A program made the translations under genes and the position numbers. Of a stretch of DNA of 64,000 bases, positions 7,298 to 43,402 are shown piece after piece (within the stretch, counting starts at the first letter, position 1; each line of letters opens with the position of its first letter). The stretch is from an uncultured Candidatus Saccharibacteria bacterium (GTDB lineage Bacteria > Patescibacteriota > Minisyncoccia > UBA6257 > WO2-44-18). A model generated the notes under the pieces. It had not been told where the DNA came from, did no database searches, and saw only the letters and a program-made list of their open reading frames with translations. The stretch lies in contig CAYJVO010000002.1 in NCBI GenBank assembly GCA_964373675.1, forward strand, positions 3,054 through 67,053. Direction: 5' to 3'.

Positions 7298-7303
7298 AAT
7301 AAA

Positions 7304-7343: not shown

Positions 7344-7346
7344 TTT

Positions 7347-7404
7347 CCGAAAATCCGAAAAAAATGAATCTCCAAAAAAATGAACCTCCGAAAATGAAAC
7401 TCCC
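7347..7404. repeat. tandem repeats of about 15 nt (AAAAATGAAYCTCC), 3-4 copies
   Basis: Direct reading of 7347-7404 shows the repeated unit. Confidence 0.6.
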
Positions 7405-7424
7405 CGGGCTTACCCTCGGCCTCG

Positions 7425-7608
7425 CTGTAAGCGGAGCCGAGTCTGACTCGGCGGAGCCCCACGCCTTTGGCAGGGCAATGCTCGCCCGTGGCAGGGCGTG
7501 ACGCCCGGGATATTCTTTGAATGAAGCTCCACGGCCTTATCTAGCCTTCGTAGCCGAGTCAGACTCGGCGGAGTAGGCCGCCCGGGGTTTTCGGCGAAGG
7601 AGAATAAA
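7425..7608 (+). repeat. R1 structured repeat family (one partial and one full copy) with GCCGAGTCWGACTCGGC hairpin
   Basis: CTTCGTAGCCGAGTCAGACTCGGCGGAGTAGGCCGCCCGGGGTTTTCGGCGAAGGAGAATAAA at 7546-7608 also occurs at 5106-5170 (reverse complement) and 56953-57024. A partial copy lies at 7425-7460. The local context is GC-rich. Confidence 0.7.
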
Positions 7609-7611
7609 CAA

Positions 7612-7640
7612 TAAAAAAAGCCGCGGTTTGATCGCGGCTG
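7612..7640 (-). terminator. rho-independent terminator of the sqd1-like gene
   Basis: On the minus strand, CAGCCGCG-ATCAAAC-CGCGGCTG is followed by TTTTTTT directly after the TAA stop. Confidence 0.7.
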
Positions 7641-10112: not shown

Positions 10113-10145
10113 TCAAACTGCTAATCGCAGTTTAGGCAAAAAGGA

Positions 10146-10871
10146 TTATTTTTGCAACACAAAAAAATAGTGATACTTATTCAATACCGGTTTTATTTCG
10201 CGCAAAATACGAAAATGCGAACCTAAAATTCGCCTGACCTTACCTAATCGGTAGTTCCAATAATCAATCTCCCAATAATGCTGACCAGAAACCTTGATGC
10301 CGCCGAACTTCAACGGAATACGCAGGAAAAAATCCAGAAAGGATTTTCTAAAAATAGTGCGTACGCCTGGAAATTTGAAAACCCATTCCCAACCAGTGGA
10401 TTTATAAGGCAAAGAAATCAAGGCGTAGCGCTTAGTCACGCGCCGTAATTCCGCCAGCGCCTTAGAAACCTCTTCAAACGGAATATGCTCTAAAACTTCA
10501 AAAGCCGTAACCACGTCAAATCCGCTTTCTTTAAATGGCAATGAGCGTATGTCTGCCACCACATCCGGATTTAAATTCTTATCAAAATCGCAGGTCGTCA
10601 AATTATAGCCCAGCTTTTTCATATAGTCCGAGAAAAACCCGCTGCCCTTCCCAATCTCCAAAATTTTAAATTTGCGATTCAAAACATCCGAATTCCATTC
10701 GAATGATTCTAAACCATCTTTGTTTTTGGATAATTCTAATGTATTCGAATTTTTTGAATCGCATTCCGCAATCTCTTGCACAAGACTAACTTGATAATAA
10801 TAAGAAATAAACCGCTCGAGGTCATCATACTTACGCCGAAAATAATGTTCTTTTTCAACTTGTGGGTTCAT
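10146..10871 (-). CDS. class I SAM-dependent methyltransferase carrying the in-frame 89-bp repeat
   Basis: ILEIGKGSGFFSDYMKKLGYNLTTCDFD is MTase motif I. Residues DSKNSNTLELSKNKDGLESFEWNSD are encoded by the repeat at 10674-10762. Confidence 0.6.
   Translation of the reverse strand: MNPQVEKEHYFRRKYDDLERFISYYYQVSLVQEIAECDSKNSNTLELSKNKDGLESFEWNSDVLNRKFKILEIGKGSGFFSDYMKKLGYNLTTCDFDKNLNPDVVADIRSLPFKESGFDVVTAFEVLEHIPFEEVSKALAELRRVTKRYALISLPYKSTGWEWVFKFPGVRTIFRKSFLDFFLRIPLKFGGIKVSGQHYWEIDYWNYRLGKVRRILGSHFRILREIKPVLNKYHYFFVLQK
10674..10762. mobile_element. 89-bp MITE-like repeat, copy 2, in-frame inside the methyltransferase CDS
   Basis: 11-bp terminal inverted repeats GCGATTCAAAA / TTTTGAATCGC. 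The host proteins are unrelated, but the repeat translates to nearly the same peptide in both. Confidence 0.65.
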
Positions 10872-10890
10872 GAAACCTATTGGCTAAACC

Positions 10891-11595
10891 CTAGTGGCTA
10901 TTGGCTTTGTGGATTATAAATGAATTCCCATGCCAAGAATATTTGTGGAACTCGGTCGCGCTGAATTGCGGATATTTCTTCAACCACTCTCGAAATGCCA
11001 GCTGCTCGCCGGCATTCGGGTTGCCCCGGAAAAGAAACCAATCATCAAAAACTATAACCGTCCCAGCAACTATATAATCCTTAACAAATTCCAGCACCGG
11101 CACCGTTGACTCATATAAATCGCAATCTACCCAAATCACGGCCGCAGATTTCATCGGCAGCTTTTTCCTGGTGTCCGCGGTTAGCGTTTCGTTAAACCAG
11201 CCGGGAATAATTTCCACTTTGCTAAAATCAACTCCTGCCGCTTTAAGGTTATTCTTGAAAAGACCCAGCGAGGCAGAATATTCGCCTTTAGAAAACTGAG
11301 TAAATTCCGCATCCTTTCCCCGTATATCCGGCAGCCCCTCAAAAGAATCGAAGGCGTAAAACCGCATTTCTTGAAGATGCTTATTTTTCTGCGCCCACCG
11401 GCAAGCCGCGGCAAAAGTCCCGCCTCGGAAAACCCCGAACTCCAAATAATCTCCGGGTAGGCGAGCTTCCGCGACATAGTTCATAATTTTACGCAAAATT
11501 TCCTGCTTATCCCGCTCTTTTGGAGATAAACGTAAAAATTCCAGCCCCGGAAATCGCCTTTCTAACCAATGAAAAATTGCTTTAAAGACGGCCAT
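10891..11595 (-). CDS. TylF/MycF-family (macrocin O-methyltransferase-like) SAM methyltransferase
   Basis: LPGDYLEFGVFRGGTFAAACRW and VIWVDCDLYESTVPVLEFV match the TylF family. Confidence 0.7.
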   Translation of the reverse strand: MAVFKAIFHWLERRFPGLEFLRLSPKERDKQEILRKIMNYVAEARLPGDYLEFGVFRGGTFAAACRWAQKNKHLQEMRFYAFDSFEGLPDIRGKDAEFTQFSKGEYSASLGLFKNNLKAAGVDFSKVEIIPGWFNETLTADTRKKLPMKSAAVIWVDCDLYESTVPVLEFVKDYIVAGTVIVFDDWFLFRGNPNAGEQLAFREWLKKYPQFSATEFHKYSWHGNSFIIHKANSH

Positions 11596-11812
11596 GCTTT
11601 TTTAATAAATTTTTAATGTCGCCGACATTTTTCACCTTCGCCATTTCCTCAATAACAATCTTCAATCCGTATTCCCTTTCCAGCGTCTCCCAAAGCTTTA
11701 ATCCGTTAAACGAATCCCAGCTTGATAAATTATCCGGACTGGTTTGATCCGTAATTTTTTCCGGCTTAACTCCAAAAACTCCCGCTAAAATTTCTTCTAA
11801 AGATTTATGCAT
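11582..11812 (-). CDS. acyl carrier protein
   Basis: 76 aa with LSSWDSFNGLKLWETLEREYGL, a DS phosphopantetheine-attachment motif in a helix II-like context. Confidence 0.65.
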   Translation of the reverse strand: MHKSLEEILAGVFGVKPEKITDQTSPDNLSSWDSFNGLKLWETLEREYGLKIVIEEMAKVKNVGDIKNLLKKHGRL

Positions 11813-11927
11813 CCCGTTAGAAGCAGATCGCGATCTGCGATTGGCTGGATATTATTTTATATAAACAATTTTTCATTTTTATAAGATTTTGGCAGTCTAT
11901 AAAGCGATCGCGGCTTCTAACGGGATC
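11810..11927. mobile_element. inverted-repeat cassette, family B copy 1 (CATCCCGTTAGAAGC...GCTTCTAACGGGATC) with internal promoter facing the ACP gene
   Basis: Arms at 11810-11832 and 11905-11927 are inverted repeats. The terminal CAT of the left arm is the ACP start codon. On the minus strand the interior reads TTATAA-17 nt-TATAAA about 35 nt upstream of the ATG. Confidence 0.6.
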
Positions 11928-11939
11928 TTGTTTCAAGAT

Positions 11940-13613
11940 TTATGATTCGTAATCTGCTGTAGAAAGATCGCCCAGATCGGCGCCAGTCTCCTGGGCCCGA
12001 AGCACTCGGCGCATAATCTTTCCGCTGCGAGTCTTGGGTAATTTACTGACGAACTCAATCTCTCGCGGCACTTCGTGTACTGATAAATGTTTTTTCACAA
12101 ATTGCATCAGCTCACTCTTCAACGCCTCACCGGCTTCCGAACCAGACTTGAGCATCACGAACGCCTTAACGACATTGCCATATAATTCGTGGGGCTTTCC
12201 GATCACGCCGGCCTCCGCCACCGCCGGATGGGCCACCAACGTGCTTTCAATTTCAAAAGGACTAATCCGTTCAGCGGCACTCTTAATCATATCGTCTTCC
12301 CGACCCTGGAACCAAATATATCCCTCCCCATCCTTATAGGCCGTATCGCCAGAAATATACCACCCATCCTCAAAATAGGAATCAAACTTTTTTGGATTGT
12401 TCCAAATTGTTTTCATCAACCCTGGCCATGGAATTTTTACCGCTAAGCGACCAACCTCACCGGGCGGCAGCTCTTTGCCTTGATGATCAATAATCGCAGC
12501 CACGATACCCGGAATTGGTTTTCCCATTGATCCTTTCTTAATAGGCAAACAACGATAGTTATTAATAAGCTGGTGGCCATTCTCCGTCATATACCAAGAA
12601 TCATGTATTGATATTCCTAAACTATCCATCGTCCAGTCAATTAAGCTCGGGTTCAGTGGCTCGCCAGCGCTCACAATATGACGCAACGCCGGATGGTTTT
12701 CTTTATTTATCGGTGTGTTGTAGTAACGGAGCAGACGAAAGGCGGTCGGCGTGCTGTACCAAACGCTGATCCTCATTTTTTCCATGAACTCCGCCCAAGC
12801 CAACGACTGAAATTGGCCTTCATAAATATGCGCCGCCACCCCGCAAAGAAGCGGGGCAAAAAAATTGTAGACCATCCCCGTTACCCACCCAGGATCTCCG
12901 GTATTCCAATACCGATCTTCCGCATGAAGGTCCAATACATATTTAGCAGTGACCAGATGGCCAATCATGGCGCGATTAACCAGCAAGACACCCTTTGGCT
13001 TGGCCGTAGAGCCAGAAGTGTAATGAATAATAAACGGTGTTTCCAGATCGCCAAAGTACAATGCTCTTGGGTCGATTGACGTTTTTACGGCTTCCGAAAT
13101 TTTTTCTGGCGTTAAAATATTTTTCAATGCCGGCAGCTTATTCAAGGGAACATTAGGCCGAAGTTTTTCAGTAGTATAAATCCAAGTGGCTGAACAGTCT
13201 CCTAACCGATCCTCAATAGCGTCGGCGCCAAAAGCCTCAAAAAGCGGCACCGCGATCGCGCCGCACTTAATAGTGGCATGCAATACCGCCACGTATTCTA
13301 TGGAACGCGGCGCGTACAAAGCAAAACGATCACCGGGCCGCAAACCGTTTTGGTAAAAAAAGGACGCCAGCCGATCGGTTTTCTCTGCCAGTTCCTGAAA
13401 AGTAATCTGCTGGGCGACTCCATCAGCGCGCTGGGAAATAATCGCCGGCCGATCGCCGTTTCCTTTAACTGCCTGAACATTCGTAATTTCGTAAGCGTAA
13501 TTTACTTTGCCGTTGGCGTGCCAAGAAAATTCTTGGTGCCAATCCTGCCAAGAAAATCGTTTATATTCCGCTTCGTAATCCTTAAAATTAGGAGCTAGAT
13601 CCATCTTTTGCAT
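11940..13613 (-). CDS. AMP-dependent synthetase/ligase (acetyl/acetoacetyl-CoA synthetase-like)
   Basis: IIHYTSGSTAKPKGV is the AMP-binding motif, and the protein has an Acs-like N-terminus. The long ORF to 13700 overlaps the upstream gene, so start at the Met near 13613 (MQKMDLAPNF) is preferred. Confidence 0.7.
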   Translation of the reverse strand: MQKMDLAPNFKDYEAEYKRFSWQDWHQEFSWHANGKVNYAYEITNVQAVKGNGDRPAIISQRADGVAQQITFQELAEKTDRLASFFYQNGLRPGDRFALYAPRSIEYVAVLHATIKCGAIAVPLFEAFGADAIEDRLGDCSATWIYTTEKLRPNVPLNKLPALKNILTPEKISEAVKTSIDPRALYFGDLETPFIIHYTSGSTAKPKGVLLVNRAMIGHLVTAKYVLDLHAEDRYWNTGDPGWVTGMVYNFFAPLLCGVAAHIYEGQFQSLAWAEFMEKMRISVWYSTPTAFRLLRYYNTPINKENHPALRHIVSAGEPLNPSLIDWTMDSLGISIHDSWYMTENGHQLINNYRCLPIKKGSMGKPIPGIVAAIIDHQGKELPPGEVGRLAVKIPWPGLMKTIWNNPKKFDSYFEDGWYISGDTAYKDGEGYIWFQGREDDMIKSAAERISPFEIESTLVAHPAVAEAGVIGKPHELYGNVVKAFVMLKSGSEAGEALKSELMQFVKKHLSVHEVPREIEFVSKLPKTRSGKIMRRVLRAQETGADLGDLSTADYES

Positions 13614-13659
13614 ATGTGCATATTGTAACGATTTTTTTGTATTTACGCAACAAAAAAGC

Positions 13660-14616
13660 CTACTCTTGAGTAGGCTCATACGAATACTTAATGATGTCAT
13701 AGTGAAGCGCCTTCATTAAGGAATAGAGGGTTTCGTTCACGGGCACACTAAGGCCATGCTTTCTTGCCAATTGGACGACTTTTCCCACAAAGCTTTCGTA
13801 CTCTAATTTTCGTTTCCGCAATCGTACATCTCTTTGGGTAGAGCTGACATATTCATTAAACGACTTCCCTGAATCTAAAACATAATTTACGTCATCCGGT
13901 GTTAAAACCACTCCTTCGGCTCGGCCAACCGCCACTACCTCCGCCATCAGCTTATCCAGCATTACCGCTGACTCGGAACATTCATGAAAACGATTAAAGG
14001 GAAGGTTGCAAACTGCCGTTGGAATATTGATGGTACAATTCCATAAAAATTTTCTCCACATCGCTCTTCGGATATCCGGCGGATTAAATACTGGTATATT
14101 GGCTTTTCTAAATGTGTCATTAATGGCTGAGACGCGTCTTGAAACTTCGCCATTCCATTCGCTAAAATAAATTTCCCCTTTACTGCCATGGTCAACTGTT
14201 CCTTCAGGATGGTTAACGGAAACGCCTACTAAAGTAAAGCCGGGCAAAACCTTTTCCTGGCCAATCACTGCTCCAATTCTCTCTGGATTGTCAATGCCAT
14301 TTTGAATCGTCAGAACCAATGTATCCTTCCCAACCACTGACTTAATCGCCTGCGCGGCTTCATCGGTGTCATGGGACTTAACTGTAAATAAAATAAGGTC
14401 GGCTTCTGGCAATCCATCAAGGGTGTCTCGGAAATTTGCCGGACTAATGTCAAAATTGCCAGTACGGCTGCGTACCCGAATCCCATGCCTGCGGAAATGA
14501 ACCAAATTCTGTCCGCGGGTAATAAAAGTTACATCGTATCCTGCCCGAACTAATAAGGCACCGAAATAAGCTCCGACTGCTCCGGCGCCCATTATATAAA
14601 TCCTGTTCATCAACAC
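13660..14616 (-). CDS. 2-dehydropantoate 2-reductase (PanE/ApbA)-family NAD(P) oxidoreductase
   Basis: MNRIYIMGAGAVGAYFGALLVRAGYDV is an N-terminal Rossmann motif. The 318-aa length matches the ApbA N- plus C-domain. Confidence 0.65.
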   Translation of the reverse strand: MLMNRIYIMGAGAVGAYFGALLVRAGYDVTFITRGQNLVHFRRHGIRVRSRTGNFDISPANFRDTLDGLPEADLILFTVKSHDTDEAAQAIKSVVGKDTLVLTIQNGIDNPERIGAVIGQEKVLPGFTLVGVSVNHPEGTVDHGSKGEIYFSEWNGEVSRRVSAINDTFRKANIPVFNPPDIRRAMWRKFLWNCTINIPTAVCNLPFNRFHECSESAVMLDKLMAEVVAVGRAEGVVLTPDDVNYVLDSGKSFNEYVSSTQRDVRLRKRKLEYESFVGKVVQLARKHGLSVPVNETLYSLMKALHYDIIKYSYEPTQE

Positions 14617-14655
14617 CTCGTATTCAAAGGATGCTCACTTTATCGTATAGAAAAA

Positions 14656-15114
14656 CTATTTCCTTGGCAAATTGATCCTATAAAAATTCGTCTCCGCTCT
14701 GGAAAACCCCATTGCTTGATACATCTTATTCGCCTCAACCCGCTTCGGATTGGTCCGCAAACTGATATGCTTAGCCCCGAATTTTTCCGCCGTTTCAATA
14801 GCGGTTTTCAAAATAGCCGGCCCGATACCAGTCAAACGATAATCGCGATCCGCTACTAAATCCTCCAGCTCGGCGATTAAACCAGTCGGCAATTGTGTAA
14901 AATAAAGAAATCCCATACCAACAATTTGGGGCCCATTTTTAACAACTAGAAGGCGGCCGCTGTCTTGATTCAACAACTTTATAAAATCGGTTTCACTAAG
15001 CGGCTTAGGAGGCACAGCGGTCAACCCTAGCTGACCTATTAAAATGTTTACATCGCGAAGCGCCTCGGCGCTATATTCTTTTAATTGTTCCACTTGCATA
15101 AAGGTTACCTTCAT
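14656..15114 (-). CDS. GNAT-family N-acetyltransferase
   Basis: 152 aa with a GNAT-like acetyl-CoA-binding region (QIVGMGFLY...RLTGIGPAILKTAIE). Confidence 0.6.
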   Translation of the reverse strand: MKVTFMQVEQLKEYSAEALRDVNILIGQLGLTAVPPKPLSETDFIKLLNQDSGRLLVVKNGPQIVGMGFLYFTQLPTGLIAELEDLVADRDYRLTGIGPAILKTAIETAEKFGAKHISLRTNPKRVEANKMYQAMGFSRAETNFYRINLPRK

Positions 15115-15177
15115 ATTCTAATGAATTTTATTCGTAAAATCAATGGAGTTTTCTAAAAATTATGGTAAATTAAGAAC

Positions 15178-15630
15178 ATGAAACTAAAGTTGTTTTTGGC
15201 ATTCTCCGCTCTTTTAGTCGGCTTTCTTTATATCCTGCCCCCGCTTTTTGTTAAAGCTCATCTGGAAAAATCCGGCCAGGTTTTCGCTCTGAATTTTGAT
15301 GTCTATCGCGATGAGCTCTTCTATTTATCCCGCGCTCGGGAAATCTATGACGGCCACTTCCCGCCCAGTGACCTCTACTACAATGGGAAAAAACCAACTG
15401 TTCAGAATCCGCTTCCCTCTTTAATTTTGGCCGGGCTCATCTATCTTTGGAAAGGCAATATAGTCATCGCCTACCTTACCGCTCAGTTCATCTTCACGCC
15501 AATCATCTTCCTGCTTCTGTATATTCTCGGCAAACAACTGTTTCAATCTCCGCTCTGGGCAATCGCTTTTGCCTACATTACAGTACTTACGCCAATGGCG
15601 TTGCGTGTTTTAAATTTCCATGGAGCTTAG
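15178..15630 (+). CDS. polytopic membrane protein, N-terminal segment (possible frameshift with following ORF)
   Basis: Hydrophobic 150-aa ORF that overlaps the next ORF by 11 nt in the +1 frame. Confidence 0.4.
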   Translation: MKLKLFLAFSALLVGFLYILPPLFVKAHLEKSGQVFALNFDVYRDELFYLSRAREIYDGHFPPSDLYYNGKKPTVQNPLPSLILAGLIYLWKGNIVIAYLTAQFIFTPIIFLLLYILGKQLFQSPLWAIAFAYITVLTPMALRVLNFHGA

Positions 15631-17083
15631 CTTCGGTCAAATTTTCACAGACACGAACAATGACGGCTTCCACGAGTCTCTCCGGGAATTTTTTGGCTAT
15701 TTCGTCAAACAATTTATACCGTTGGTCCAAACTCAAATAGAAAAACTTTATTTTGCCAGATTGGACTACCCTCTGCTGGTTTTTCCGTTATACCTCGCGG
15801 CCATCATCGGACTAATAGCTTTTTGGAAAAAACCTTCCTACAAAACCGCTATTCTGGCCGCCATTCCGGCCGGCCTGCTTTTTTATTCTTATTTCCACTA
15901 CTGGGTTTATTGGTGCATCGTGATCGGATTAATTACTCTGTATGCCATCATTTTTGAACGTCGGAATAAAACCCTAATTCGTTCATTGGCTATTCTCCTC
16001 GGCATTCTGGCAATAATTTCTATCCCTTACTTTGTAAATTATTTTTCTTTCAAAAATACCCCCGGAGCGTATGATTTGGCGTTAAGATTTGGTATTGCCT
16101 CAGGACGCTCTCTCGCCTTGGCAACGATGGGGTGGACTTATATTAGTTACGCAATACTGGCAATAGCAATCTACTTTGTATACTTCAGGAAAGGGCATAA
16201 AAATATCGCCGTGCTTTTTTGGATATTTTTAGTTGCCATGGTCACAATTTGGAACGTACAAATCATAATTGGATTTTCACCAACACCCAATAATTGGCGC
16301 AGAACAGTCAGCCCTATTTTATTCATCATCATCATCCATCTTATTTATACGCTTTCGCGGCGGGCAGAATTACGTTGGCCTCGTTTAAAACCAATTATTA
16401 TCGGGGTGTTGATATTAGCAACCTCGGGGGTCGCTCTTAAAAAGATTGTGAACGCCGTGCAAATTGTCCGTCAACCCGAACAACGAATCTTAACCGGCCA
16501 AACTCTGCCAAATGAACTTTTGGCCTCCTGGCAATGGCTGAACGGACAAACAATCCGCGAACCGAGAGTCGCTACAAATTCTTTCATGACTTCGCTTTAT
16601 CTCACCGCTTACACTGACGCGCGGCCAACCCTGCCCCATGCCGTTCTCTCATTACAATCTACTCAAGAACTCGAGAATCATTTTCTTGAAATGAACAAAA
16701 TTTTTGGTGTATCGCCTGAAACCTTGGAACAGGTGCTTTTAAAAACTTACATCCCGCCTTGCCATCCGGCTTGTACGCCTAATAGTGAAGACAACGTTCG
16801 CAAACCTACGTGGCACCTCTATGCGCACTTTTTCCGGACTGGTGACGTCAATGCCTATATCAATAATCCTAAAGATATTGATAGTGCCTATATTAAAAAA
16901 CTGCGGGGCAGATACGAAGCTATGAGAGTTAATCCTGAATCGGTATTAAAAGATGTAAAGTATATTTATTACGGCCCCTGGGAACAAGAACTAGGAGCAA
17001 AATTAACGACGGAGTTGAAAAAACGTTTCGAGCTGGTATATAAAAATAGTCTGGTAGAAATTTATCGCCGTAAAAAAACATGA
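15620..17083 (+). CDS. polytopic membrane protein (GT-C / O-antigen-polymerase-like fold plausible), C-terminal segment
   Basis: 487 aa with more than 8 predicted TM helices followed by a soluble C-terminal domain. Adjacent to glycan genes. Confidence 0.4.
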   Translation: MELSFGQIFTDTNNDGFHESLREFFGYFVKQFIPLVQTQIEKLYFARLDYPLLVFPLYLAAIIGLIAFWKKPSYKTAILAAIPAGLLFYSYFHYWVYWCIVIGLITLYAIIFERRNKTLIRSLAILLGILAIISIPYFVNYFSFKNTPGAYDLALRFGIASGRSLALATMGWTYISYAILAIAIYFVYFRKGHKNIAVLFWIFLVAMVTIWNVQIIIGFSPTPNNWRRTVSPILFIIIIHLIYTLSRRAELRWPRLKPIIIGVLILATSGVALKKIVNAVQIVRQPEQRILTGQTLPNELLASWQWLNGQTIREPRVATNSFMTSLYLTAYTDARPTLPHAVLSLQSTQELENHFLEMNKIFGVSPETLEQVLLKTYIPPCHPACTPNSEDNVRKPTWHLYAHFFRTGDVNAYINNPKDIDSAYIKKLRGRYEAMRVNPESVLKDVKYIYYGPWEQELGAKLTTELKKRFELVYKNSLVEIYRRKKT

Positions 17084-17931
17084 ACTGCGCTATTTGTTCC
17101 GGAACAATCAATCAAAGTTATATTAAAAGAAATGGGGTGACTTTAATGCGCTGCTTGAAGTGTAAATTTGTCTTTATACCACAACAACTATACGATACCA
17201 ATCCTGCCTTGCAATATTTAAATGATACAACTTCACCGTCAGCGTACTATTCGACCACCGCTACGGTTGATAAGAAAAATTTCCAACGTACATTATCTCG
17301 GCTGGAACAATACATCGCTCCTGGAACGATTTTAGATATTGGCGCAAGTGTCGGCACCTTTTTGGATGTTGCTAAAAAACGCGGCTGGCATGGAATCGGC
17401 ATTGAACCAAATCCTAAAGCCGTGGCTATCGCGCGCTCTAAAGGACTGGAAATGCTGCAAGGCTTTTTTAATGATCAATGCCTTAAGGAACTCCAAAAAC
17501 AATTCCCTTCGGGTTTTGACGCAGTCCATATGGGCGATATTATTGAACATGTCTTTGAACCGCTGGAACTCCTTAGATTGGCACGTGCCATCTTAAAACC
17601 CGGTGGCTACCTCGCGATCGTAACGCCGGATATTGATACCCTACTGGCCAAAAAATACCAGATAAAACCCAAAGAACATCTTGTTTACTTTAATCGCAGC
17701 TCAATGGAGGAAGCGCTGAATAATGGTGGATTTAAAAAACAAATCATCAAGCGACAGACCAAGTTTCGCGACATTGCCAATATAGGTAAAGGAACAGTTT
17801 ATTTGGATCCACTATCTCGAATGATTTCACTTATTGCCAAAATCAAACCAATTGGCTTGGTAATAAATTTTATTGTTAGTCTTTTTCCCGAAGAACTACT
17901 CGTTATAGCTAGAAAGCCAGGGCAGAACTAA
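17080..17931 (+). CDS. class I SAM methyltransferase with N-terminal zinc-ribbon
   Basis: CAICSG...CLKCKF zinc ribbon, and ILDIGASVGTFLDVA as motif I. Confidence 0.65.
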   Translation: MNCAICSGTINQSYIKRNGVTLMRCLKCKFVFIPQQLYDTNPALQYLNDTTSPSAYYSTTATVDKKNFQRTLSRLEQYIAPGTILDIGASVGTFLDVAKKRGWHGIGIEPNPKAVAIARSKGLEMLQGFFNDQCLKELQKQFPSGFDAVHMGDIIEHVFEPLELLRLARAILKPGGYLAIVTPDIDTLLAKKYQIKPKEHLVYFNRSSMEEALNNGGFKKQIIKRQTKFRDIANIGKGTVYLDPLSRMISLIAKIKPIGLVINFIVSLFPEELLVIARKPGQN

Positions 17932-19139
17932 TTAGGAAAAATGGCTACATCATCAAAATAAGCAGTCCCCGCAGCAGGATCAAATTCCATCCTCAATTCA
18001 TCAAACTTATCTGCTGTACCATTATTTTGGAAACTCTCTTCCGGCGTAAAAGGACCATTATCAATCCTTACCCGATATTTATCGGTTACTAAATCAAAAG
18101 ATATAAATAGAGTATGCCAGGTATTAGGAAAATATTGACCGGCCAAAGTGCCGCCACCACTCCCAACTTCGCCGGCTGGCCTCATATGCACTGAAGCCTT
18201 AGCAATACCATTTTCCCTTAAAATAGCCACAAATTTTCCGCTGCTACTAGTAGTGCGTCTCATTCTAACGCTTAAAATTCCCTTTCCCGTAATTGGGGTA
18301 AATCTTCTATCAGCGGTTGCGGTGATACCTTGGTTCTCAACGGCTTTTAGGCCCTCAAAAACAACACTGTTTTGAACATTGTATGCGTTTGAACTCCACG
18401 CATTAGTCCACCCCGCGCCACTATTATTTCCATTAAGCGGTCCAATATCATAAATATCAAAATCATCGGACACTAATGGGGTTGGCGGCGGTGGTAATGG
18501 CGGTTCTCCGGTACCGCAATCCACAGATATAGTATTAAGGATGCCAGCAGAATTTACCGTTACTTTATGACAATTAGAGCCGTCGGTATCTTTGAGAATA
18601 ACGTCATTTAAAGTACCGACTTTGGTTATTTTAGTAAAAGGCCCGACTAAAAGATCATCATTGGTAATTGTGTTATCACCGATTGTTCCTCCGGTTCCCC
18701 CATTGACCGCATTAAGAGTTGATAATATTCCCAGTCCTAAAGATAGCCGTCCCGCCACCGCATCCAAATTAGCAGAATCACCATCCCACTGCCTTCTTTC
18801 ATTAAAGGCGGTATCCCAACCAAAAGCTTTGGCGCTCAAATCCAATCCATCTATTAAGCCGGATAATTTTATATCACCGAGAACGGAAAGATTGCCAGCT
18901 ATGTCCACTTTTTCTACCGGGGCATTCGTTCCTATGCCAACTTGATCGGTTTGGGTGGTTAACCTCACAACCGTTCCGCTATCTGTCCATCCCGCTGGAC
19001 CACCTTGAGCCGGAGCGCCAGCAGGGGGCCCCTGGGCCTCGACCAACTGTGTCTCATCGTTGCGTGAAGGAAAATAAATAAACGCCGCCACAATCAAAAC
19101 TACGACAGCGAGAGCTAATAAAAAGGAGTTTTTGGTCAT
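17928..19139 (-). CDS. secreted/membrane-anchored hypothetical protein (N-terminal TM, Gly/Pro-rich linker, beta-rich C-domain)
   Basis: MTKNSFLLALAVVVLIVAAF signal anchor followed by GPPAGAPAQGGPAGW. No catalytic motif recognised. Confidence 0.4.
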   Translation of the reverse strand: MTKNSFLLALAVVVLIVAAFIYFPSRNDETQLVEAQGPPAGAPAQGGPAGWTDSGTVVRLTTQTDQVGIGTNAPVEKVDIAGNLSVLGDIKLSGLIDGLDLSAKAFGWDTAFNERRQWDGDSANLDAVAGRLSLGLGILSTLNAVNGGTGGTIGDNTITNDDLLVGPFTKITKVGTLNDVILKDTDGSNCHKVTVNSAGILNTISVDCGTGEPPLPPPPTPLVSDDFDIYDIGPLNGNNSGAGWTNAWSSNAYNVQNSVVFEGLKAVENQGITATADRRFTPITGKGILSVRMRRTTSSSGKFVAILRENGIAKASVHMRPAGEVGSGGGTLAGQYFPNTWHTLFISFDLVTDKYRVRIDNGPFTPEESFQNNGTADKFDELRMEFDPAAGTAYFDDVAIFPN

Positions 19140-20239
19140 GAATTTAATGATAGCATTTTATTGTAAATAACGTTGTATAGCTGGGCAGTTTTCCCCCAAC
19201 TCATTGAACGCGCAAAAGAAATCGAATTTTTCGACATATCAAACCTCAAATCGGGATTAGATAATATTTTCTCCATAGCGGCTGAAGCGCTCTTTGGGTT
19301 CTGCGGACTTACCAAAATGCCGTTCTTCCCGTCCCTAACCGCGTCTTCCGCGCTAGTTTCTTTAGTAGTAATCACCGGCAATCCGGCGGCCGCCGCCTCC
19401 AAGAAAACCAGTCCAAAACCTTCAATGTCTTTGTTAACATCCTGCGGCATTAATATAAAAAGCTCGGCGTTTTTATAAACCGATATCAATTCTTCCTCCG
19501 ATAAATTTTCTAAAAAAACAACCCGATCTTGATACTTGATACTTGATACTTGCCGCTGAAGCGCTTCGTACTCCGGCCCTTTCCCGACAATCACGTATTT
19601 CAAACCTGGAAACTTCTTGGCTACTTCCGCGAATGCCGCGATTGAATATTCGTATCCTTTTCGTTGCTTTAATGTTCCAACGCTTAATATATAAGGTTTC
19701 AATTTCTGGACTTCCGATGTCCCAATATTGACGTCAATGGTTTGGACATCGGAAGTCCCTGATATTGATTCGAATTTTGTAAAATCAACGCCGTGATTAA
19801 TAACAGAGATTTCCAAATCCGGCAAAAATTTCTGGATTTCTCTTTTGGTATTATTACTAACCGCTATTACCCTAAACGCTCTTTTATACGCCCATTTCAT
19901 AATCGGCCGTCTCCACCAGCTGTAAAACGGCTTAACCGCCCCGGTGCCAATGCCGGTTATAATTAGTTTTTTTCTTGATCCTAAAGATACTATGGCCGCA
20001 ATCACGCCATATGGCCAGCCATCCAAGGCATGAATAATATCGCAATATTTAAAGGCTCGACGAATACAGAAATAGAAAAAAGGTAATTGCCAACATTTTT
20101 TCGGCAAACCGCTATCATGAGTTAAAACTTCATATTGAAAATCTGGAACAATCTTTTCAAGAGCGCTGATTAGCGAATGATAAAACCGCCCGGCGCCAGT
20201 TTTATCGCTTAAATCATGATTAAGATAACAAATTTTCAT
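19136..20239 (-). CDS. GT4-family glycosyltransferase
   Basis: YVIVGKGPEYEAL...FGLVFLEAAAAGLPVITT is the GT4 C-domain signature. A heptamer-repeat-encoded loop (QVSSIKYQ) is present. Confidence 0.8.
   Translation of the reverse strand: MKICYLNHDLSDKTGAGRFYHSLISALEKIVPDFQYEVLTHDSGLPKKCWQLPFFYFCIRRAFKYCDIIHALDGWPYGVIAAIVSLGSRKKLIITGIGTGAVKPFYSWWRRPIMKWAYKRAFRVIAVSNNTKREIQKFLPDLEISVINHGVDFTKFESISGTSDVQTIDVNIGTSEVQKLKPYILSVGTLKQRKGYEYSIAAFAEVAKKFPGLKYVIVGKGPEYEALQRQVSSIKYQDRVVFLENLSEEELISVYKNAELFILMPQDVNKDIEGFGLVFLEAAAAGLPVITTKETSAEDAVRDGKNGILVSPQNPKSASAAMEKILSNPDLRFDMSKNSISFARSMSWGKTAQLYNVIYNKMLSLNS
19528..19552. repeat. heptamer tandem array (CTTGATA x3.5) inside GT4 CDS
   Basis: CTTGATACTTGATACTTGATACTTG. 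It is in-frame and encodes QVSSIKYQ. Confidence 0.8.
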
Positions 20240-20518
20240 CCCGTTAGAGACAGGGAGCGTTTTAATCGATTTTTGATATATCGCTTTCCCATGCCTGATT
20301 TTAAATATAGTTCCCTCGACTTTGCGTCTTGTTCATTTTCGCATGCTTCAAAATATATTAATTCCCAAGGTCCACGATTTTTAGTGAAGCCATGTAAATC
20401 ACTGTTGCGTTATTTAAAACGCTTCCGTAAATCTGCCGTATATCCTGTATACCATTGTCTATTCTTTTTGCTTTGTAAAACATAAACATAATAAAACATT
20501 ATTGTCTCTAACGGGATC
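20237..20518. mobile_element. inverted-repeat cassette, family B copy 2 (CATCCCGTTAGAGACAG ... TTGTCTCTAACGGGATC)
   Basis: Arms at 20237-20253 and 20502-20518. The left-arm CAT is the start codon of the GT4 gene. The right arm abuts the stop codon of the next methyltransferase gene. The interior is 248 bp and AT-rich. Confidence 0.6.
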
Positions 20519-21242
20519 ATCGTTGTAAAATATAAATAATCTTTGCCCCCCAGCGGTTTTCTAAATAATTCCTCAATGGTCTGCTGAAAGAGACCAATCG
20601 GTAAACCAATTTCCGCAATCGTCCTCTAAGCCCGTCAAAAATCCGTGGAGTGATAAAATACTCTCTGTCCACTAATTGAAAATATTTAAGAACTGTCTTT
20701 TTAAAAATTGCCGGGGTTAAAATCGTAATATGATTATTACGTTCATGATAAGCGGGAAACTCGCCATGCTGTAAAAAATATTGGCGATTTACGGGAGAAG
20801 CCACATTGATAGAGGACATTATCAGCAAACCGCCGGGCTTGAGAACCCGCCGCGCTTCGCGGATAAAATTATGAGGATTTTCCAAATGCGGGATCAAACA
20901 CCAGCCAGTAACCACATCAAAAAATTTATCCGGCCAAGGAATAGATTGAAAGCTTAAATCAGCAGTTTTAAATTCTTTTAAAAAACTAACTCTTTCCGGA
21001 TTGAGATAATTACCGATATCCACGCCATAAATATTTCGGTAACCAGCTCCATGAACAGCCGAGATGAATCCGCCGCTCGCCGCGCCGCAATCCAAAACCG
21101 CGGCTCCATAGAGAGGGCCGACATATTTTTGAAAAACCTCTAAGCCCCTGCCGCGGCGAATGGTCGGCCCGGTAAATTTACTTAGCCGTTCTTTAACTGT
21201 TTCATGATGCTTTTTAAGTTCTTCAGGAGATAGGTACTGCAT
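20517..21242 (-). CDS. class I SAM-dependent methyltransferase
   Basis: VLDCGAASGGF is motif I. It is paralogous to the next gene. Confidence 0.7.
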   Translation of the reverse strand: MQYLSPEELKKHHETVKERLSKFTGPTIRRGRGLEVFQKYVGPLYGAAVLDCGAASGGFISAVHGAGYRNIYGVDIGNYLNPERVSFLKEFKTADLSFQSIPWPDKFFDVVTGWCLIPHLENPHNFIREARRVLKPGGLLIMSSINVASPVNRQYFLQHGEFPAYHERNNHITILTPAIFKKTVLKYFQLVDREYFITPRIFDGLRGRLRKLVYRLVSFSRPLRNYLENRWGAKIIYILQR

Positions 21243-21252
21243 AGATTCTAAA

Positions 21253-21933
21253 TTACTTCTTTCTTAACACATAATAAATATAGCGGCCAAACCATTGATT
21301 TGCCGGAAGGATTTTTTTAAGCAGTTTATTCAAAAATAAAAATTTAAATTCTGATTTTGAATATTCGGTTGTCACTAAATCAAAATACTTCAAAAAAGTC
21401 TTTTTAAAAATTGCGCGGGTAAAAAATGTAATGTGATTATCGCCTTCCAAAAAATGATAAATATCGCCGCGCCAGAAAAAGAGCAGCCGATTCAAAATAT
21501 GAAATGGGTTTGGAGTGGAAATAATAAATATCCCGCCCGATTTTAAAACCCGAAACACTTCCCGTCCGAAAAAATAAGGATTCTCTAGGTGCTCAACCAG
21601 TTGGGAAGCTATTACTCCGTCAAAATGACTATCCGGCCACGGCAATTTATCCAAGCATAAATCAGCTTTAGAAAATTCGAATTTCTTGGCCGGCTCAGAA
21701 CGATAATCATCAATGTCCGCGCCAGTCAAATTCTGATAACCGGCTTCCGAAAACTGCGAAAGCAGGGAGCCATCGGCTGATCCGCAGTCTAAAATCGGCC
21801 GCGAACGATCGGGCAAATATTTTTCCGCTAAACCTAAAATCTTGCCGCTGCGAATATCCCAACTGGAACGCTGCTGCAGATGCAATAGCTCATTTTGTCT
21901 ATTTTTTATTTCATCTGGATCAAGGTATTTCAT
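21253..21933 (-). CDS. class I SAM-dependent methyltransferase (paralog of 20517-21242)
   Basis: ILDCGSADGSLL is motif I. The conserved C-terminal block (LENP...GG...I.S, NHIT...AIFKKT.LKYF.LV..EY) is shared with the neighbour. The longest ORF starts MCGM... inside the cassette arm, so the Met at 21933 is preferred. Confidence 0.7.
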   Translation of the reverse strand: MKYLDPDEIKNRQNELLHLQQRSSWDIRSGKILGLAEKYLPDRSRPILDCGSADGSLLSQFSEAGYQNLTGADIDDYRSEPAKKFEFSKADLCLDKLPWPDSHFDGVIASQLVEHLENPYFFGREVFRVLKSGGIFIISTPNPFHILNRLLFFWRGDIYHFLEGDNHITFFTRAIFKKTFLKYFDLVTTEYSKSEFKFLFLNKLLKKILPANQWFGRYIYYVLRKK

Positions 21934-22042
21934 CCCGCACATAACTAAGACTGCAGCAACGCTGCAATCCTATTTTAACTTTTTAACTTTTTTCACCATA
22001 ATATATCTAATTTTTAAAATAGTCTTAGTTATGTATGGGATG
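21931..22042. mobile_element. inverted-repeat cassette, family A copy 2 (CATCCCGCACATAACTAAGACT ... AGTCTTAGTTATGTATGGGATG)
   Basis: 22-bp terminal inverted repeats with a 68-bp AT-rich interior that has promoter-like hexamers. Both termini present an outward ATG. The left one is the MTase start codon. Confidence 0.65.
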
Positions 22043-23383
22043 CAATATAAGATTGGCCAAGCGTTCTCCTGATTTGCCATCCAACCATACACAGGCATTT
22101 TTAGCAATTGCACTATTTCCTTCTCTGCCAATAGAAGGATTGGCTAAATAATATCTTGCCAACTCAACTAATTCCTGCGGACTGCGGGCAATTTTAAGCG
22201 AGCCCTGATTAATAACTGCTTGCTGATGTTCATATTCATAATACCGTCTTAAACTGTCCCAAAAGGGCTTTGGTTTTTCTCCGTCAAGGCCAATTAGCAC
22301 GATGGGTTTATTGAAAATCGCGGCGTCCAAAACAATGCTTGAGGGGCTTGTGACTGCCACATCGCTATGGTAGATCAGATCGGCCAGATGTTCATCATCG
22401 CCGCGGCGTAGTAAGGATTCTTCCAATCGGGCCGCGCTTTTAGGAATGTCAAAAACCATATACGGCGGCGGAGTAAAATCGCTTATTTCCGCTCCTCCAA
22501 AAATCGGAAAGCGCACCACTACCTGTTCTCCAACGCCGGCTAAAATCTTCAATAAATATTTATTAAAAGAAGTGTCGCCGGTCCAAATATCACTCGGCGG
22601 AGTCACAAAAATCAATTTCCGATTCGGATCTAATTTCAGTTTTTCAAAAAATTCTTTGCGAGGCGTTCGTTTTCCTAAAATGTAATGATCGTAGTGAGGA
22701 TACCCCACCACTGCTGTCACATCAGCAGGCACACTGTGATATTTAACAGCCCAATCTTTAATCTGATTATTCTGCACCGCTAAGATATCTGGTAAGGTAC
22801 GCAGCAATCCCTTAGTTGTCATGGCGTCCCAAGAACGACTCATCGCAATGCTTTTAATACCTTTTCTTCTAGATTCTCTGACTAAATAAGTGTCACTGTA
22901 CTCCTGAACTCGCAAATCCTGAATGTCAGTAGCAAAAACTAACTGCGGCTGGTATTTGGCAAACAGGGCGTCATAGCCGCCAGCCGGTACTAACCAATAA
23001 TCAAGCCAGCGAAAAAATTTTCTGACTAATCCAAAACTGCCCAACCAGCTCAGAAAAGAAGTGAACCAATAGCGCAAATAATTGCGATCTTTCCCTAACT
23101 GCACCAGCTTATGAATTTTTTTGCTGCGATTATGCAGTAAATTCCACGATAAAACGTGAAATAAGAGATTGATTTTAGAGAGAGGACGAAACGGCACTTC
23201 CTCCACAATTATATTGCCTCCCCCAAACTCTTTTTGAAAAAATTCTCCCTTTTTCTCTGGTACTAAAAGTACAATTCTAAGATTTGGCTGACTTTTTAAC
23301 AAAGCAAAGGCGTCGGTCTCCAGTATATTACGGACAACCAGATTGAAAAAACCGGTAAAGAAAATTGTTTTGGGAGGATTCAT
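22025..23383 (-). CDS. TagF-like/capsule-biosynthesis glycerophospho- or glycosyl-transferase family protein
   Basis: 452 aa, paralogous in architecture to 3689-5104 (FNKPIVLIG vs FDKPIINIG C-terminal block). Confidence 0.5.
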   Translation of the reverse strand: MNPPKTIFFTGFFNLVVRNILETDAFALLKSQPNLRIVLLVPEKKGEFFQKEFGGGNIIVEEVPFRPLSKINLLFHVLSWNLLHNRSKKIHKLVQLGKDRNYLRYWFTSFLSWLGSFGLVRKFFRWLDYWLVPAGGYDALFAKYQPQLVFATDIQDLRVQEYSDTYLVRESRRKGIKSIAMSRSWDAMTTKGLLRTLPDILAVQNNQIKDWAVKYHSVPADVTAVVGYPHYDHYILGKRTPRKEFFEKLKLDPNRKLIFVTPPSDIWTGDTSFNKYLLKILAGVGEQVVVRFPIFGGAEISDFTPPPYMVFDIPKSAARLEESLLRRGDDEHLADLIYHSDVAVTSPSSIVLDAAIFNKPIVLIGLDGEKPKPFWDSLRRYYEYEHQQAVINQGSLKIARSPQELVELARYYLANPSIGREGNSAIAKNACVWLDGKSGERLANLILHPIHN

Positions 23384-43398: not shown

Positions 43399-43402
43399 GT
43401 AA

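Follow-up and report, generated by a model that had tools for sequence, protein, structure and literature searches.

A probable palindromic mobile element on the start codon of a glycosyltransferase gene in Candidatus Saccharibacteria

The window, a 64,000-nt stretch of DNA from an uncultured Candidatus Saccharibacteria bacterium, contains a segment bounded by inverted repeats between a methyltransferase stop codon and a GT4 glycosyltransferase start codon. The segment occupies the entire intergenic space and touches both gene boundaries, as an earlier note on this DNA had recorded. That note took it for the second copy of a repeat family and for a mobile or invertible promoter module feeding the GT4 gene. 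The question raised by the locus is what kind of element lies so exactly between two genes. The features, all on the minus strand, are listed in coding order, with the two related copies last.

20517-21242, minus: upstream gene, SAM-dependent methyltransferase; stop TGA at 20517-20519
20517-20520, minus: left copy of the duplicated target ATGA (read from the sequence; family-wide flank duplication)
20503-20517, minus: gene-distal terminal inverted repeat, 5' on the coding strand, ATCCCGTTAGAGACA (repeat finder)
20253-20502, minus: interior, 250 nt, exceeding that of typical family members by about 150 nt
20253-20426, minus: inner hairpin beside the 3' arm (repeat finder and relatives L002 and L008)
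20236-20292, minus: short internal ORF (MGKRYIKNRLKRSLSLTG*), read from the sequence
20238-20252, minus: gene-proximal (3') terminal inverted repeat, TGTCTCTAACGGGAT (repeat finder)
20236-20239, minus: right copy of the duplicated target ATGA, the GT4 ATG (20237-20239) plus the next base (sequence)
19136-20239, minus: downstream gene, GT4 glycosyltransferase (Pfam Glycos_transf_1, 1.5e-40)
11811-11926, minus: typical sister copy, 116 bp, from an AMP-ligase stop (11940-11942) to an acyl-carrier-protein start (ATG 11810-11812)
21928-22045, minus: diverged relative (the short form of 'family A' in the earlier note), detected by the family covariance model

The element at 20238-20517

A repeat finder was used to delimit the arms. 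Two 15-nt arms at 20238-20252 (ATCCCGTTAGAGACA) and 20503-20517 (TGTCTCTAACGGGAT), as read on the forward strand, are 100% complementary and 250 nt apart. The inverted repeat first described is real, but its arms are 15 nt rather than 17 nt because each 17-nt string adds a non-complementary base at either end. The whole element measures 280 nt and has a GC content of 35%. Its interior, AT-rich as claimed (33.6% GC), has 250 nt, not 248; an 89-aa ORF on the opposite strand of the element has no Pfam match. Both gene boundaries were placed correctly. The CAT at 20237-20239 is the ATG of the GT4 ORF, the final two bases of the gene-proximal arm are the AT of this start codon, and the first base of the gene-distal arm on the coding strand, the last of the right arm, is the A of the methyltransferase TGA. 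The family signature CCT precedes the gene-proximal arm.

The tetranucleotide ATGA is present on both sides of the element. The left copy contains the methyltransferase stop and a now-orphan ATG (20518-20520). A 281-base deletion from one ATGA to the other (20240-20520 or equivalently 20236-20516) yields CAACGATGAAAATT, an ATGA stop/start overlap that resembles the empty site of L003.

The interior contains an inner hairpin with a 13-nt stem (92% complementary) in which 20414-20426 pairs with 20253-20265 around a 148-nt loop (20266-20413), and TTACGG (20425-20430) precedes it. In L002 and L008 the corresponding stem has 7 bp and closes a loop of 4 nt, which places the additional length of the window copy in its 148-nt loop. 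The 250-nt interior resembles nothing in the other fetched loci. The TGA of the short ORF at 20236-20292 overlaps the GT4 ATG as ATGA. From its position this ORF could be a candidate for translational coupling, and in a single copy such an ORF could also arise by chance.

The terminus shared with the element near 11810 was confirmed. The 11-mer ATCCCGTTAGA occurs in the window at exactly four sites, 11811, 11916(-), 20238 and 20507(-), and with one mismatch allowed there are 6 matches compared with 0.96 expected, a number reached by 0/100 shuffles. The 11811 copy has a 19-codon internal ORF (11817-11876) with its TAA 4 nt before the ATG, and the copy is bracketed by a 10-bp direct repeat, AAGATTTATG, at 11800-11809 and 11935-11944. 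The diverged copy at 21928-22045 has the arms ATCCCATACATAAC... and ...GTTATGTGCGGGAT and adjoins the ATG of the methyltransferase at 21253-21942. The window thus holds two canonical copies and one diverged copy, three junction elements in one glycan locus. An Rfam search of positions 10000-22000 (E ≤ 1) gave no match to either element, and only sub-threshold chance matches to plant microRNA models elsewhere. Cyanobacterial HIP1 (GCGATCGC in the 11811 copy) was rejected as an identity; the octamer occurs twice compared with 1.45 expected, and the relatives are Saccharibacteria.

The repeat family and its insertion sites

Metagenomes were scanned with the pattern ATCCCGTTAGA-N75-105-TCTAACGGGAT (paired 22 bases), which samples the 97-127 bp size class and gave matches in at least 120 contigs. 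The 11-mer ends are set by the pattern, and their conservation in the matches is therefore uninformative. Family members end in the inverted repeats ATCCCGTTAGA...TCTAACGGGAT, usually measure about 100-125 bp (97-126 bp among the matches listed) and have a variable, AT-rich interior. Named relatives among the matches listed are for the most part Patescibacteria, and the family pattern was not found in viral contigs. Eight of the fetched loci each have at least two exact-pattern copies, and L098 carries tandem copies. The family was not found described in the literature, which was searched for the arm sequences and for Patescibacteria with MITEs or leaderless genes.

The position on a start codon is a property of the family. 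An ORF of at least 60 codons starts at an arm-overlapping ATG right after 109 of the 129 distinct copies among the matches listed, the same arrangement as in the window copy, whose arms extend into the methyltransferase stop codon and the GT4 start codon. Only 7 of these 129 copies lack an ATG on both sides. The downstream genes of 105 copies fall into 151 Pfam families without a functional theme and include essential EF-G, tRNA ligases and RRF; most copies precede single housekeeping genes with their own promoters (all among matches listed).

The flanks were compared for target duplication, again among the matches listed. In 88/120 copies the left flank reads ATGN, and a further 10 have ATG there; the variable base of ATGR is the same on both flanks in 85/88, the base following ATGR is A in 79/79, and the dominant direct repeat, ATGAA or ATGGA, flanks 71/121 copies. 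The duplication is usually 5 nt, with 4 nt in the window copy and about 10 others and 6 nt in one or two, and the 11811 copy has a displaced direct repeat of about 19 nt at its flanks. This variable length (4-6 nt, displaced repeat) is unusual for a DDE transposase and atypical for a MITE. In 39/79 copies the left ATG follows 6-9 nt after the end of a -10-like hexamer, and in 16/79 an upstream ORF of 60 codons or more runs into the left ATGA (matches listed). By these features, the pre-insertion sites look like gene starts.

Orthologous loci were examined for empty sites, as the earlier note had proposed. Nine orthologous GT4 loci, all starting with ATGA[AG], comprise 2 filled and 7 empty sites; the best match to the window GT4 is 66% identical. 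The insertions in the window and in L002 could be one old event followed by precise losses instead of separate gains. Interiors that are 80-86% identical are found before non-homologous genes among the matches listed. Mobility of the element, present or former, is thus well supported by the empty sites, the duplicated start codon and the near-identical copies before unrelated genes, and the 'mobile' half of the original reading stands. These comparisons show that the AT of the 3' arm completes the start codon, that ATGA, ATGAA or ATGGA is duplicated on the opposite side and that element-free orthologous loci exist.

The element has the attributes of a MITE: 280 bp (97-126 bp in the family), only very short ORFs, 15/15 complementary arms, a target duplication, multiple dispersed copies and both empty and filled orthologous sites. 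No long element with the same ends was detected in 929 kb of fetched loci, and a Pfam comparison of 50 window ORFs gave no transposase, recombinase or integrase match. A piggyBac-like or IS1380-like reading of the CCC... end was rejected because the direct-repeat register does not fit. IS200/IS605 elements have like-oriented subterminal hairpins and do not make a duplication, and ends of this type were set aside for these reasons.

Polarity, hairpin and internal ORF

The element has a direction relative to the gene. In 41 copies the signature CCTRYY-TCTAACGGGAT marks the arm next to the gene, and in 2 the arm farther from it (matches listed); the window copy has the canonical polarity. The family covariance model scores 71 bits on the gene strand and 48 on the other, and for each of the three canonical copies the gene strand scores 20-27 bits higher. 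A Logan contig assembled independently (L001, sample ERR3478686) is 100% identical, with the element in the same orientation.

The arms are conserved as a paired structure. Over 107 copies, 14 arm positions are 99.2% paired, and positions 12-14 vary in sequence, with four types of pair at each, yet remain paired in 96-98% of copies (matches listed). Many copies have a stem of 14 bp that is extended by another 7-9 bp, and the 4-nt bulge is always found on the 3' arm. Folding pairs the arms of the window copies as well (z = -4.1 and -6.1). Sense and antisense folding energies are equal (-37.4 and -36.9 kcal/mol), so folding energy does not decide between an RNA and a DNA hairpin. In copies from contigs labelled Chloroflexota or Planctomycetota, GGAG(G) stands in the 3' arm at the spacing of a Shine-Dalgarno sequence, and CTCC in the 5' arm pairs with it.

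The interiors are enriched in short ORFs that end at the downstream gene. An internal ATG-initiated ORF of at least 12 codons ends at a TAA placed 7 nt ahead of the gene's ATG, in the arrangement TAA-CGGG-ATG, in 42/108 copies among the matches listed, compared with 9.7 ± 2.9 in dinucleotide shuffles and 6 on the antisense strand. The copies are mutually related, which inflates these counts, and the enrichment still holds with one copy per sequence cluster (10.6/33 versus 2.7 ± 1.4). The frame of the left ATG is stop-free in 42/97 interiors, compared with 6-18 for the other five frames (matches listed), and in-frame fusion to the downstream gene is a depleted class (10 versus 17.3 expected). 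The internal-ORF stop overlaps the downstream ATG in the window copy and sits 4 nt before it in the 11811 copy. The 18-codon ORF over the GT4 start belongs to the TGA+1 class, which is not significantly enriched in the family (14 versus 8.4 ± 2.8 expected), and the ORF opened by the left ATG of the window copy ends 170 nt ahead of GT4. A conserved leader peptide was rejected because the peptides share only arm-encoded residues. The enrichment of ORFs that stop 4 nt ahead of the ATG suggests that translation is coupled by way of a hairpin, which would bury the start codon.

We consider it probable that 20238-20517 is a non-autonomous palindromic mobile element whose family inserts at translation start sites. 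The window copy would have landed in an ATGA stop/start overlap that coupled the methyltransferase and GT4. The left ATGA would have retained the methyltransferase stop, and the right ATGA, rebuilt with the terminal AT of the element, the GT4 start. In the operon transcript the arms would pair as a long-range stem and bury the GT4 AUG. Translation of a short ORF within the element, ending on the AUG or 4 nt before it, could melt the stem and pass ribosomes to the gene by termination-reinitiation. With such coupling, insertion would be tolerated even before essential genes.

Competing explanations, analogues and meaning

The compensatory arm variation, the fixed polarity, the enriched short ORF ending at the start codon and the burial of the start codon or Shine-Dalgarno sequence in the stem are all expected of a resident leader RNA, a translational attenuator with a hairpin and leader peptide that is vertically inherited and kept for regulation. 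Such an element is unlikely. The leader reading is opposed by downstream genes without a functional theme, absence from seven of nine orthologous loci, a start codon duplicated at the flanks with its variable base matched in 85/88 listed matches, near-identical interiors ahead of unrelated genes, the tandem copies in L098 and the lack of an Rfam family match. A regulatory role acquired after insertion is compatible with the mobile-element explanation and forms part of it.

RNase III sites are known to resemble stems of the build found here, with 14 bp, a 7-9 bp extension and a bulge always on the 3' arm. An RNase III-like cut could separate the methyltransferase and GT4 messages and set their stabilities, and it would also explain the polarity. 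As the origin of the element this is improbable because it leaves the flank duplication, the empty sites and the enriched short ORFs unexplained, and cleavage of the stem would put the AUG in or near the cut with no obvious ribosome entry. RNA processing may be an added property of the mobile element and not a rival to it.

The 'invertible promoter' half of the earlier reading fared less well. A perfect 15-nt inverted repeat around an AT-rich, non-coding segment before a surface-glycan gene is the classic setting of an inverton, in which a site-specific recombinase would flip the 250-bp interior and switch GT4 transcription on or off, and the same arm sequence recurs at another gene junction of the locus. 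The asymmetric interior features have one polarity toward the gene (41:2), which the covariance model and the independent assembly also support, and no recombinase match was found among the 50 window ORFs, although one may be encoded elsewhere in the genome. Given the fixed polarity and the missing recombinase match, an invertible promoter is not supported. Promoter prediction detected no promoter-like site wholly inside the interior, and the sites it did detect were no more numerous than in shuffles (4 versus 3.4). The AT-rich interiors of the matches listed contain 72 sense and 86 antisense -10-like hexamers, and their positional profile did not have a sense-strand peak. Flank duplications and empty sites indicate insertion, and copies before genes of all kinds, including essential ones, are unlike on/off switching. 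Taken together, inversion is very unlikely.

A cassette-bounding recombination site (integron attC or Xer/dif-type, acting as folded ssDNA) through which glycan genes shuffle has a similar architecture of two paired boxes, an asymmetric bulge, a variable loop and 100-125 bp, arms containing GTTAGA and TCTAAC that resemble attC core sites, and three junction elements in one locus in its favour, but is highly improbable because the core order is reversed (GTTAGAG...CTCTAAC on either strand here versus RYYYAAC...GTTRRRY), no integrase match occurs among the 50 window ORFs, relatives differ in the gene order near GT4 with or without the element, most listed copies precede single housekeeping genes with their own promoters, and site-specific recombination would not copy a variable target base.

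The mobile-element reading places the family within a known kind of element, and its closest known analogue is the mycobacterial MIRU. MIRUs are described as 40-100 bp dispersed repeats of a host group rich in leaderless and coupled genes; their terminal repeats are imperfect, and their ends run into the adjoining genes (PMC12548453; PMC3184786, citing Supply et al. 1997). They are further described as mobile and as inserting at start codons, with an internal ORF coupled to the downstream gene at -4 nt (PMC12548453), and both tetranucleotide direct repeats and the contrast of empty and filled sites are on record for them (PMC3184786). Each of these features has a counterpart here. MIRUs are GC-rich and often tandem, whereas the present family occurs in Patescibacteria, includes the start codon itself in terminal inverted repeats that are long and pair well, and has TAA-CGGG-ATG (+4 nt rather than -4) as its commonest stop-start arrangement. 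Composition and host argue against homology, and the likeness is thus one of design, not ancestry.

MITEs and palindromic repeats such as Correia/NEMIS, ERIC, RUP and BOX are likewise non-coding elements of 100-200 bp with terminal inverted repeats and short target duplications. They use generic short targets such as TA and insert anywhere in intergenic DNA, whereas about 90% of the present copies among the matches listed lie exactly on a start codon and rebuild it. We know of no parent insertion sequence for the family. Many dispersed copies, co-transcription with neighbours and RNA hairpins are further points of likeness to these repeats (PMC3184786). Neisseria REP2 and the Borrelia upstream inverted repeats lie just upstream of genes, supply signals including the ATG and have internal stem-loops (PMC3184786); the contribution of a start codon is shared with the present family. 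REP2 is reported to carry a promoter and ribosome-binding site, whereas here a promoter is not evident and a Shine-Dalgarno sequence occurs in few copies, and start-codon duplication is not described for REP2. A short AT-rich stretch enclosed by inverted repeats and lying ahead of a glycan gene recalls invertons, which differ from the present element with its fixed polarity, flanking target duplication and lack of an invertase among the 50 window ORFs. Rickettsia palindromic elements (RPEs) are palindromic mobile repeats that survive in expressed regions through an open frame. RPEs are in-frame peptide insertions in coding sequence, whereas the present family sits at the 5' boundary; in-frame repeat insertions have been reviewed (PMC3184786). 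The same GT4 gene also contains a separate RPE-type palindrome, inserted in frame.

On this reading, the segment at 20238-20517 is an exceptionally long member of a family of small palindromic mobile elements that is common among ultra-small Patescibacteria. The genomes of these bacteria are tiny and gene-dense and are usually held to carry few mobile elements. Here, one small element family is abundant and placed on the start codons of essential genes. Its copies break assemblies, as in Logan contig L001, which terminates within an element copy, they mislead start-codon calling (ORF callers chose ATGTGCGGGATG starts), and they are open to being mistaken for invertons in phase-variation screens. 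A tentative and rather doubtful extension is that these are mobile 'translation-start cassettes' that home to ATGRA with their own start codon, coupling ORF and masking hairpin in many Patescibacteria lineages and perhaps other phyla, and that the host may use them as general translational control. The family precedes many housekeeping genes, and such a takeover is possible where Shine-Dalgarno-led initiation is largely absent. If the design works as proposed, it would explain how a selfish element can occupy the sole position where an ATGRA-specific insertion is harmless, and it would be a second, independent case of the strategy reported for mycobacterial MIRUs.

Structure of the 20238 copy

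The window is a large surface-glycan locus with glycosyltransferases, methyltransferases and sugar-nucleotide enzymes, and the genes near the element are all on the minus strand. Relatives of the downstream GT4 gene (50-66% identity) occur in Candidatus Saccharibacteria and other Patescibacteria genomes. Short or absent leaders seem common here, because a TATAAT-like box lies 6-10 nt before the ATG, with no Shine-Dalgarno sequence, at many first genes. Elsewhere in the window, phosphoglucomutase/phosphomannomutase domains are divided over two overlapping ORFs (45227-46162 with domain I alone; 46159-46614 with domains II-IV and the start GTG), which could reflect a frameshift, a split gene or a sequencing error.

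Features of the element and its sister copy
20517-21242, minus strand: methyltransferase gene, stop TGA at 20519-20517
20503-20517: 5' (distal) arm, 15 nt
20426-20414 with 20265-20253: 13-bp stem
20238-20252: 3' (proximal) arm, 15 nt
20520-20517 and 20239-20236, minus strand: direct repeat ATGA
20292-20236, minus strand: candidate coupling ORF, 18 codons
19136-20239, minus strand: GT4 gene, start ATG at 20239-20237
11811-11926: sister copy, 116 bp, between AMP-ligase and acyl-carrier-protein genes
11800-11809 and 11935-11944: perfect 10-bp direct repeat AAGATTTATG bracketing the sister copy
11876-11817: internal ORF of the sister copy, 19 codons

The arms are perfectly complementary and enclose 250 nt. 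The earlier note had drawn them as 17 nt; the inverted repeat holds, and the excess length is one unpaired base at either end. As had been proposed, the element abuts both gene boundaries. On the minus strand its first base is the A of the methyltransferase stop and its last two are the A and T of the GT4 start, each codon being overlapped by an arm. The element is identical and in unchanged orientation in L001, a contig from an independent Logan assembly of the same organism (sample ERR3478686).

The window copy belongs to a subfamily with the arrangement AGAGACA ... TTACGG-hairpin-CC-TGTCTCT, common to L002, L008, L039 and L048. In these relatives a 7-bp stem with a loop of 4 nt forms the hairpin beside the 3' arm, and the stems show clear compensatory changes between copies (GGTCCCG/CGGGACC, GGTTGTC/GACAACC, GGAAATC/GATTTCC). 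The equivalent 13-bp stem in the window copy encloses 148 nt, which accounts for its length of 280 bp versus 97-126 bp in the family. These extra 148 nt have no match anywhere else in the fetched loci.

Family size and insertion at start codons

The 11-mer ATCCCGTTAGA also delimits the sister copy at 11811, bearing out a second family member with a shared terminus; with one mismatch allowed it matches 6 times in the window versus 0.96 expected. Public metagenome contigs were scanned for ATCCCGTTAGA-N(75-105)-TCTAACGGGAT, and at least 120 contigs matched. The scan yielded loci L008-L127, and all 127 loci together (929 kb) were analysed. Among the matches listed, 109 of 129 distinct copies have, on exactly one side, an ORF of 60 or more codons with an ATG that overlaps the arm (...TCTAACGGGATG), and only 7 have the ATG on neither side. 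The genes downstream of 105 copies among the matches listed represent 151 Pfam families without a theme, and genes behind copies include elongation factors, tRNA ligases, FtsW, MurJ, DNA polymerase I and ribosome recycling factor.

By MAG name, as labelled by the depositors, copies occur in Saccharibacteria, Azambacteria, Doudnabacteria, Kaiserbacteria, Zambryskibacteria, Lloydbacteria and Minisyncoccia. Outside Patescibacteria, the matches listed include one contig each labelled Limnocylindria (Chloroflexota; L022, copy 7264-7371) and Sedimentisphaerales (Planctomycetota; L014, copy 2712-2810), with proteins so labelled at NCBI. Both copies have GGAGG or GGAG in the 3' arm at Shine-Dalgarno distance, and they could represent spread past Patescibacteria or mis-binned contigs. 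No family copy was found on viral contigs, and no Rfam family matches the element.

Copies were oriented by the downstream gene for analysis of the flanks. Of 120 copies among the matches listed, 88 have ATGN before the 5' arm and 10 more have ATG there; in 85 of the 88, N is identical to the base that follows the ATG of the gene itself (A/A 69, G/G 15, T/T 1). The most frequent direct repeat at the flanks among the matches listed is ATGAA or ATGGA, and the base after ATGR is A in 79 of 79 copies. Other notations describe the junctions too: a symmetric ATCCCG...CGGGAT whose duplication is 2 bp, or TCCCG...CGGGA, for which it is 4 bp (T-N-N-A); the 7 copies away from an ATG are compatible with the symmetric notations (TAAA, TTTA, TCAA). 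Among the matches listed, a -10-like hexamer lies 6-9 nt ahead of the left ATG in 39 of 79 copies and the left ATG overlaps the stop of an upstream ORF (ATGA) in 16 of 79, and therefore the sites before insertion were leaderless-type gene starts and coupled gene junctions.

Non-homologous genes follow copies with 80-86% identical interiors, and locus L098 has two copies in tandem. All nine orthologous GT4 genes start ATGA[AG]. The element is present at two of the nine loci, the window and L002 (a 120-bp copy of the window's subfamily), and is missing at seven.

Empty GT4 junctions at orthologous loci
L003, L128, L130: ATGA overlap
L005: TAATG overlap
L131, L129, L004: spacers of 9, 31 and 50 nt, respectively

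Since empty orthologous sites exist, the mobility suggested in the earlier note stands. Without the element and one copy of its ATGA repeat, the junction in the window reads CAACGATGAAAATT, which leaves the methyltransferase C-terminus unchanged and has an ATGA overlap as in L003.

A simple account of the start-codon bias, which we infer, combines a target preference for ATGRA with purifying selection. In a 90%-coding genome, ATGRA away from starts would lie within genes, and only at a start codon would the element's terminal AT and the duplicated G restore an intact ORF. The direct repeat varies in length, usually 4-6 nt, and is ~19 nt and displaced around the 11811 copy. There the upstream AAGATTTATG is 8 nt away from the arm, and the repeat continues with mismatches to ~19 nt of the acyl-carrier-protein 5' end.

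Likeness to known elements and other repeats

The nearest described parallel is the mycobacterial interspersed repetitive unit (MIRU). They are described as mobile repeats that go in at start codons and carry an internal ORF coupled to the gene behind it at -4 nt (PMC12548453). MIRUs also have direct repeats of the tetranucleotide type and imperfect terminal repeats, occur as empty and filled sites, and contain ORFs that overlap adjacent genes (review, PMC3184786). The present family has the same design in an unrelated host and composition, and its terminal repeats are long, well paired and include the start codon. In descriptive terms it is a non-autonomous transposable element (MITE), with two departures: it has no known parent element, and its duplications differ in length. 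No description of the family came out of literature searches that covered the arm sequences and repeats of this sort in Patescibacteria; it is apparently a new family built to a known design.

Several other repeats were observed. The GT4 coding sequence (19685-19768, minus strand) contains an 18-nt inverted repeat, 19708-19725/19741-19758, which encodes 'SGTSDVQTIDVNIGTSEVQKL' and gave spurious plant microRNA matches in Rfam. The alignment shows gaps at this place in four of seven orthologs, and ortholog P0002 (L128) has a 'SGTSDVQTIDVNIGTSEVQKL' module at the matching place and a second copy elsewhere in the protein. The repeat looks like a mobile palindrome inserted in frame, of the Rickettsia-palindromic-element type. 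A hairpin in the methyltransferase gene 10146-10871 (10673-10693/10743-10763; 21-nt arms, 90% complementary; weak microRNA-like Rfam match) may be another.

The earlier reader's other repeat family, family A, includes a 213-bp element (6922-7134) with arms CCCGCACATAACTARGACT, whose interior recurs at 44990-45174 with the right arm only. A short form, 21928-22045, shares the ATCCC...GGGATG ends, adjoins a start codon and was found by the covariance model of family B (28.7 bits, E 5e-4). Gene 61002-62132 is preceded by a half copy (62118-62157), and the L001 contig terminates inside a family A repeat. The 700-bp non-coding stretch 6940-7640 is dense with repeats: tandem units of the CTATAAAC type (7210-7300), a perfect 46-bp palindrome (7301-7346), GCCGAGTCTGACTCGGC at 7436 and 7553, and a 40-nt leader with GAAGGAG (~7570-7612) that is found again before gene 3689-5104. 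Inverted runs of CCTGAYA-like heptamers (43371-43823; arms 30-33 nt, 80-85% complementary) sit between two RNase H-like genes, 42889-43371 and 43817-44386.

Locus L092 has four variant copies (2863-2970, 4779-4887, 5673-5780, 6365-6472) with ends ACCCCGTTAGAG...CTCTAACGGGGT in a pilin-like gene array. The gene ATG is inside the element, and in-frame translation of the 3' arm gives ...RSLTG|FTLMEL, which is the prepilin cleavage motif; the element seems to have been recruited as the signal-peptide-coding region.

Polarity, pairing and proposed translational coupling

The earlier note had read the element as an invertible promoter module. The interior is asymmetric between two identical arms, and its polarity is fixed. 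Of 109 copies among the matches listed, 41 carry the signature CCT-RYY-TCTAACGGGAT on the gene-proximal arm and 2 on the distal one. A covariance model of 107 copies found three canonical copies, and in these its scores for the gene strand are 20-27 bits higher than for the opposite strand; the window copy has the canonical polarity. No Pfam match to a recombinase or transposase occurs in the 50 window ORFs scanned, a promoter scan gave no signal above background, and copies precede essential genes. These properties leave little room for phase-variable inversion. The fixed polarity may arise from orientation-specific insertion or from selection on the interior.

Among the matches listed, inner arm positions 12-14 vary in sequence, each showing four pair types, yet stay paired in 96-98% of copies, and thus pairing as such is maintained. 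The sense and antisense strands fold equally well, so folding leaves pairing in RNA and in single-stranded DNA undistinguished. The predicted RNA folds of the 20238 and 11811 copies have closed arms with the AUG at the stem base (z = -4.1 and -6.1).

Among the matches listed, the frame from the left-flank ATG is stop-free across the interior in 42 of 97 copies versus 6-18 in the five other frames. This frame ends at a TAA in the 3' arm (TAA-CGGG-ATG) in 26 copies and at a TGA overlapping the gene ATG in 12. In 42 of 108 copies among the matches listed, an ORF of 12 codons or more starts at an ATG in the A-rich centre and runs to the 3'-arm TAA, compared with 9.7 ± 2.9 in dinucleotide shuffles and 6 on the antisense strand. 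The excess persists with one copy per sequence cluster (10.6/33 versus 2.7 ± 1.4), and in-frame fusion of the element to the gene is depleted (10 versus 17.3 expected). The open left-ATG frame and the central ORF enrichment point to translation. The internal peptides show no conservation past what the arms dictate, so the act of translating the frame is what matters. The sister copy's internal ORF follows the common pattern. The sole candidate in the 20238 copy has a TGA overlapping the GT4 ATG, a class whose enrichment is not significant.

Termination-reinitiation requires a stop-start overlap or a very short gap (PMC10666635, PMC6728339), and ribosomes on an upstream frame can open a structure masking the start that follows (PMC12548453). 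A few copies come from hosts that use Shine-Dalgarno sequences; their 3' arm reads GGAG(G)TCTAACGGGATG and is paired with CTCC of the 5' arm, which by sequence is a masked ribosome-binding site. We infer that the element keeps the downstream gene expressed after insertion: it would bring a start codon together with a module for stop-start coupling and a masking stem, and these would jointly maintain that expression.
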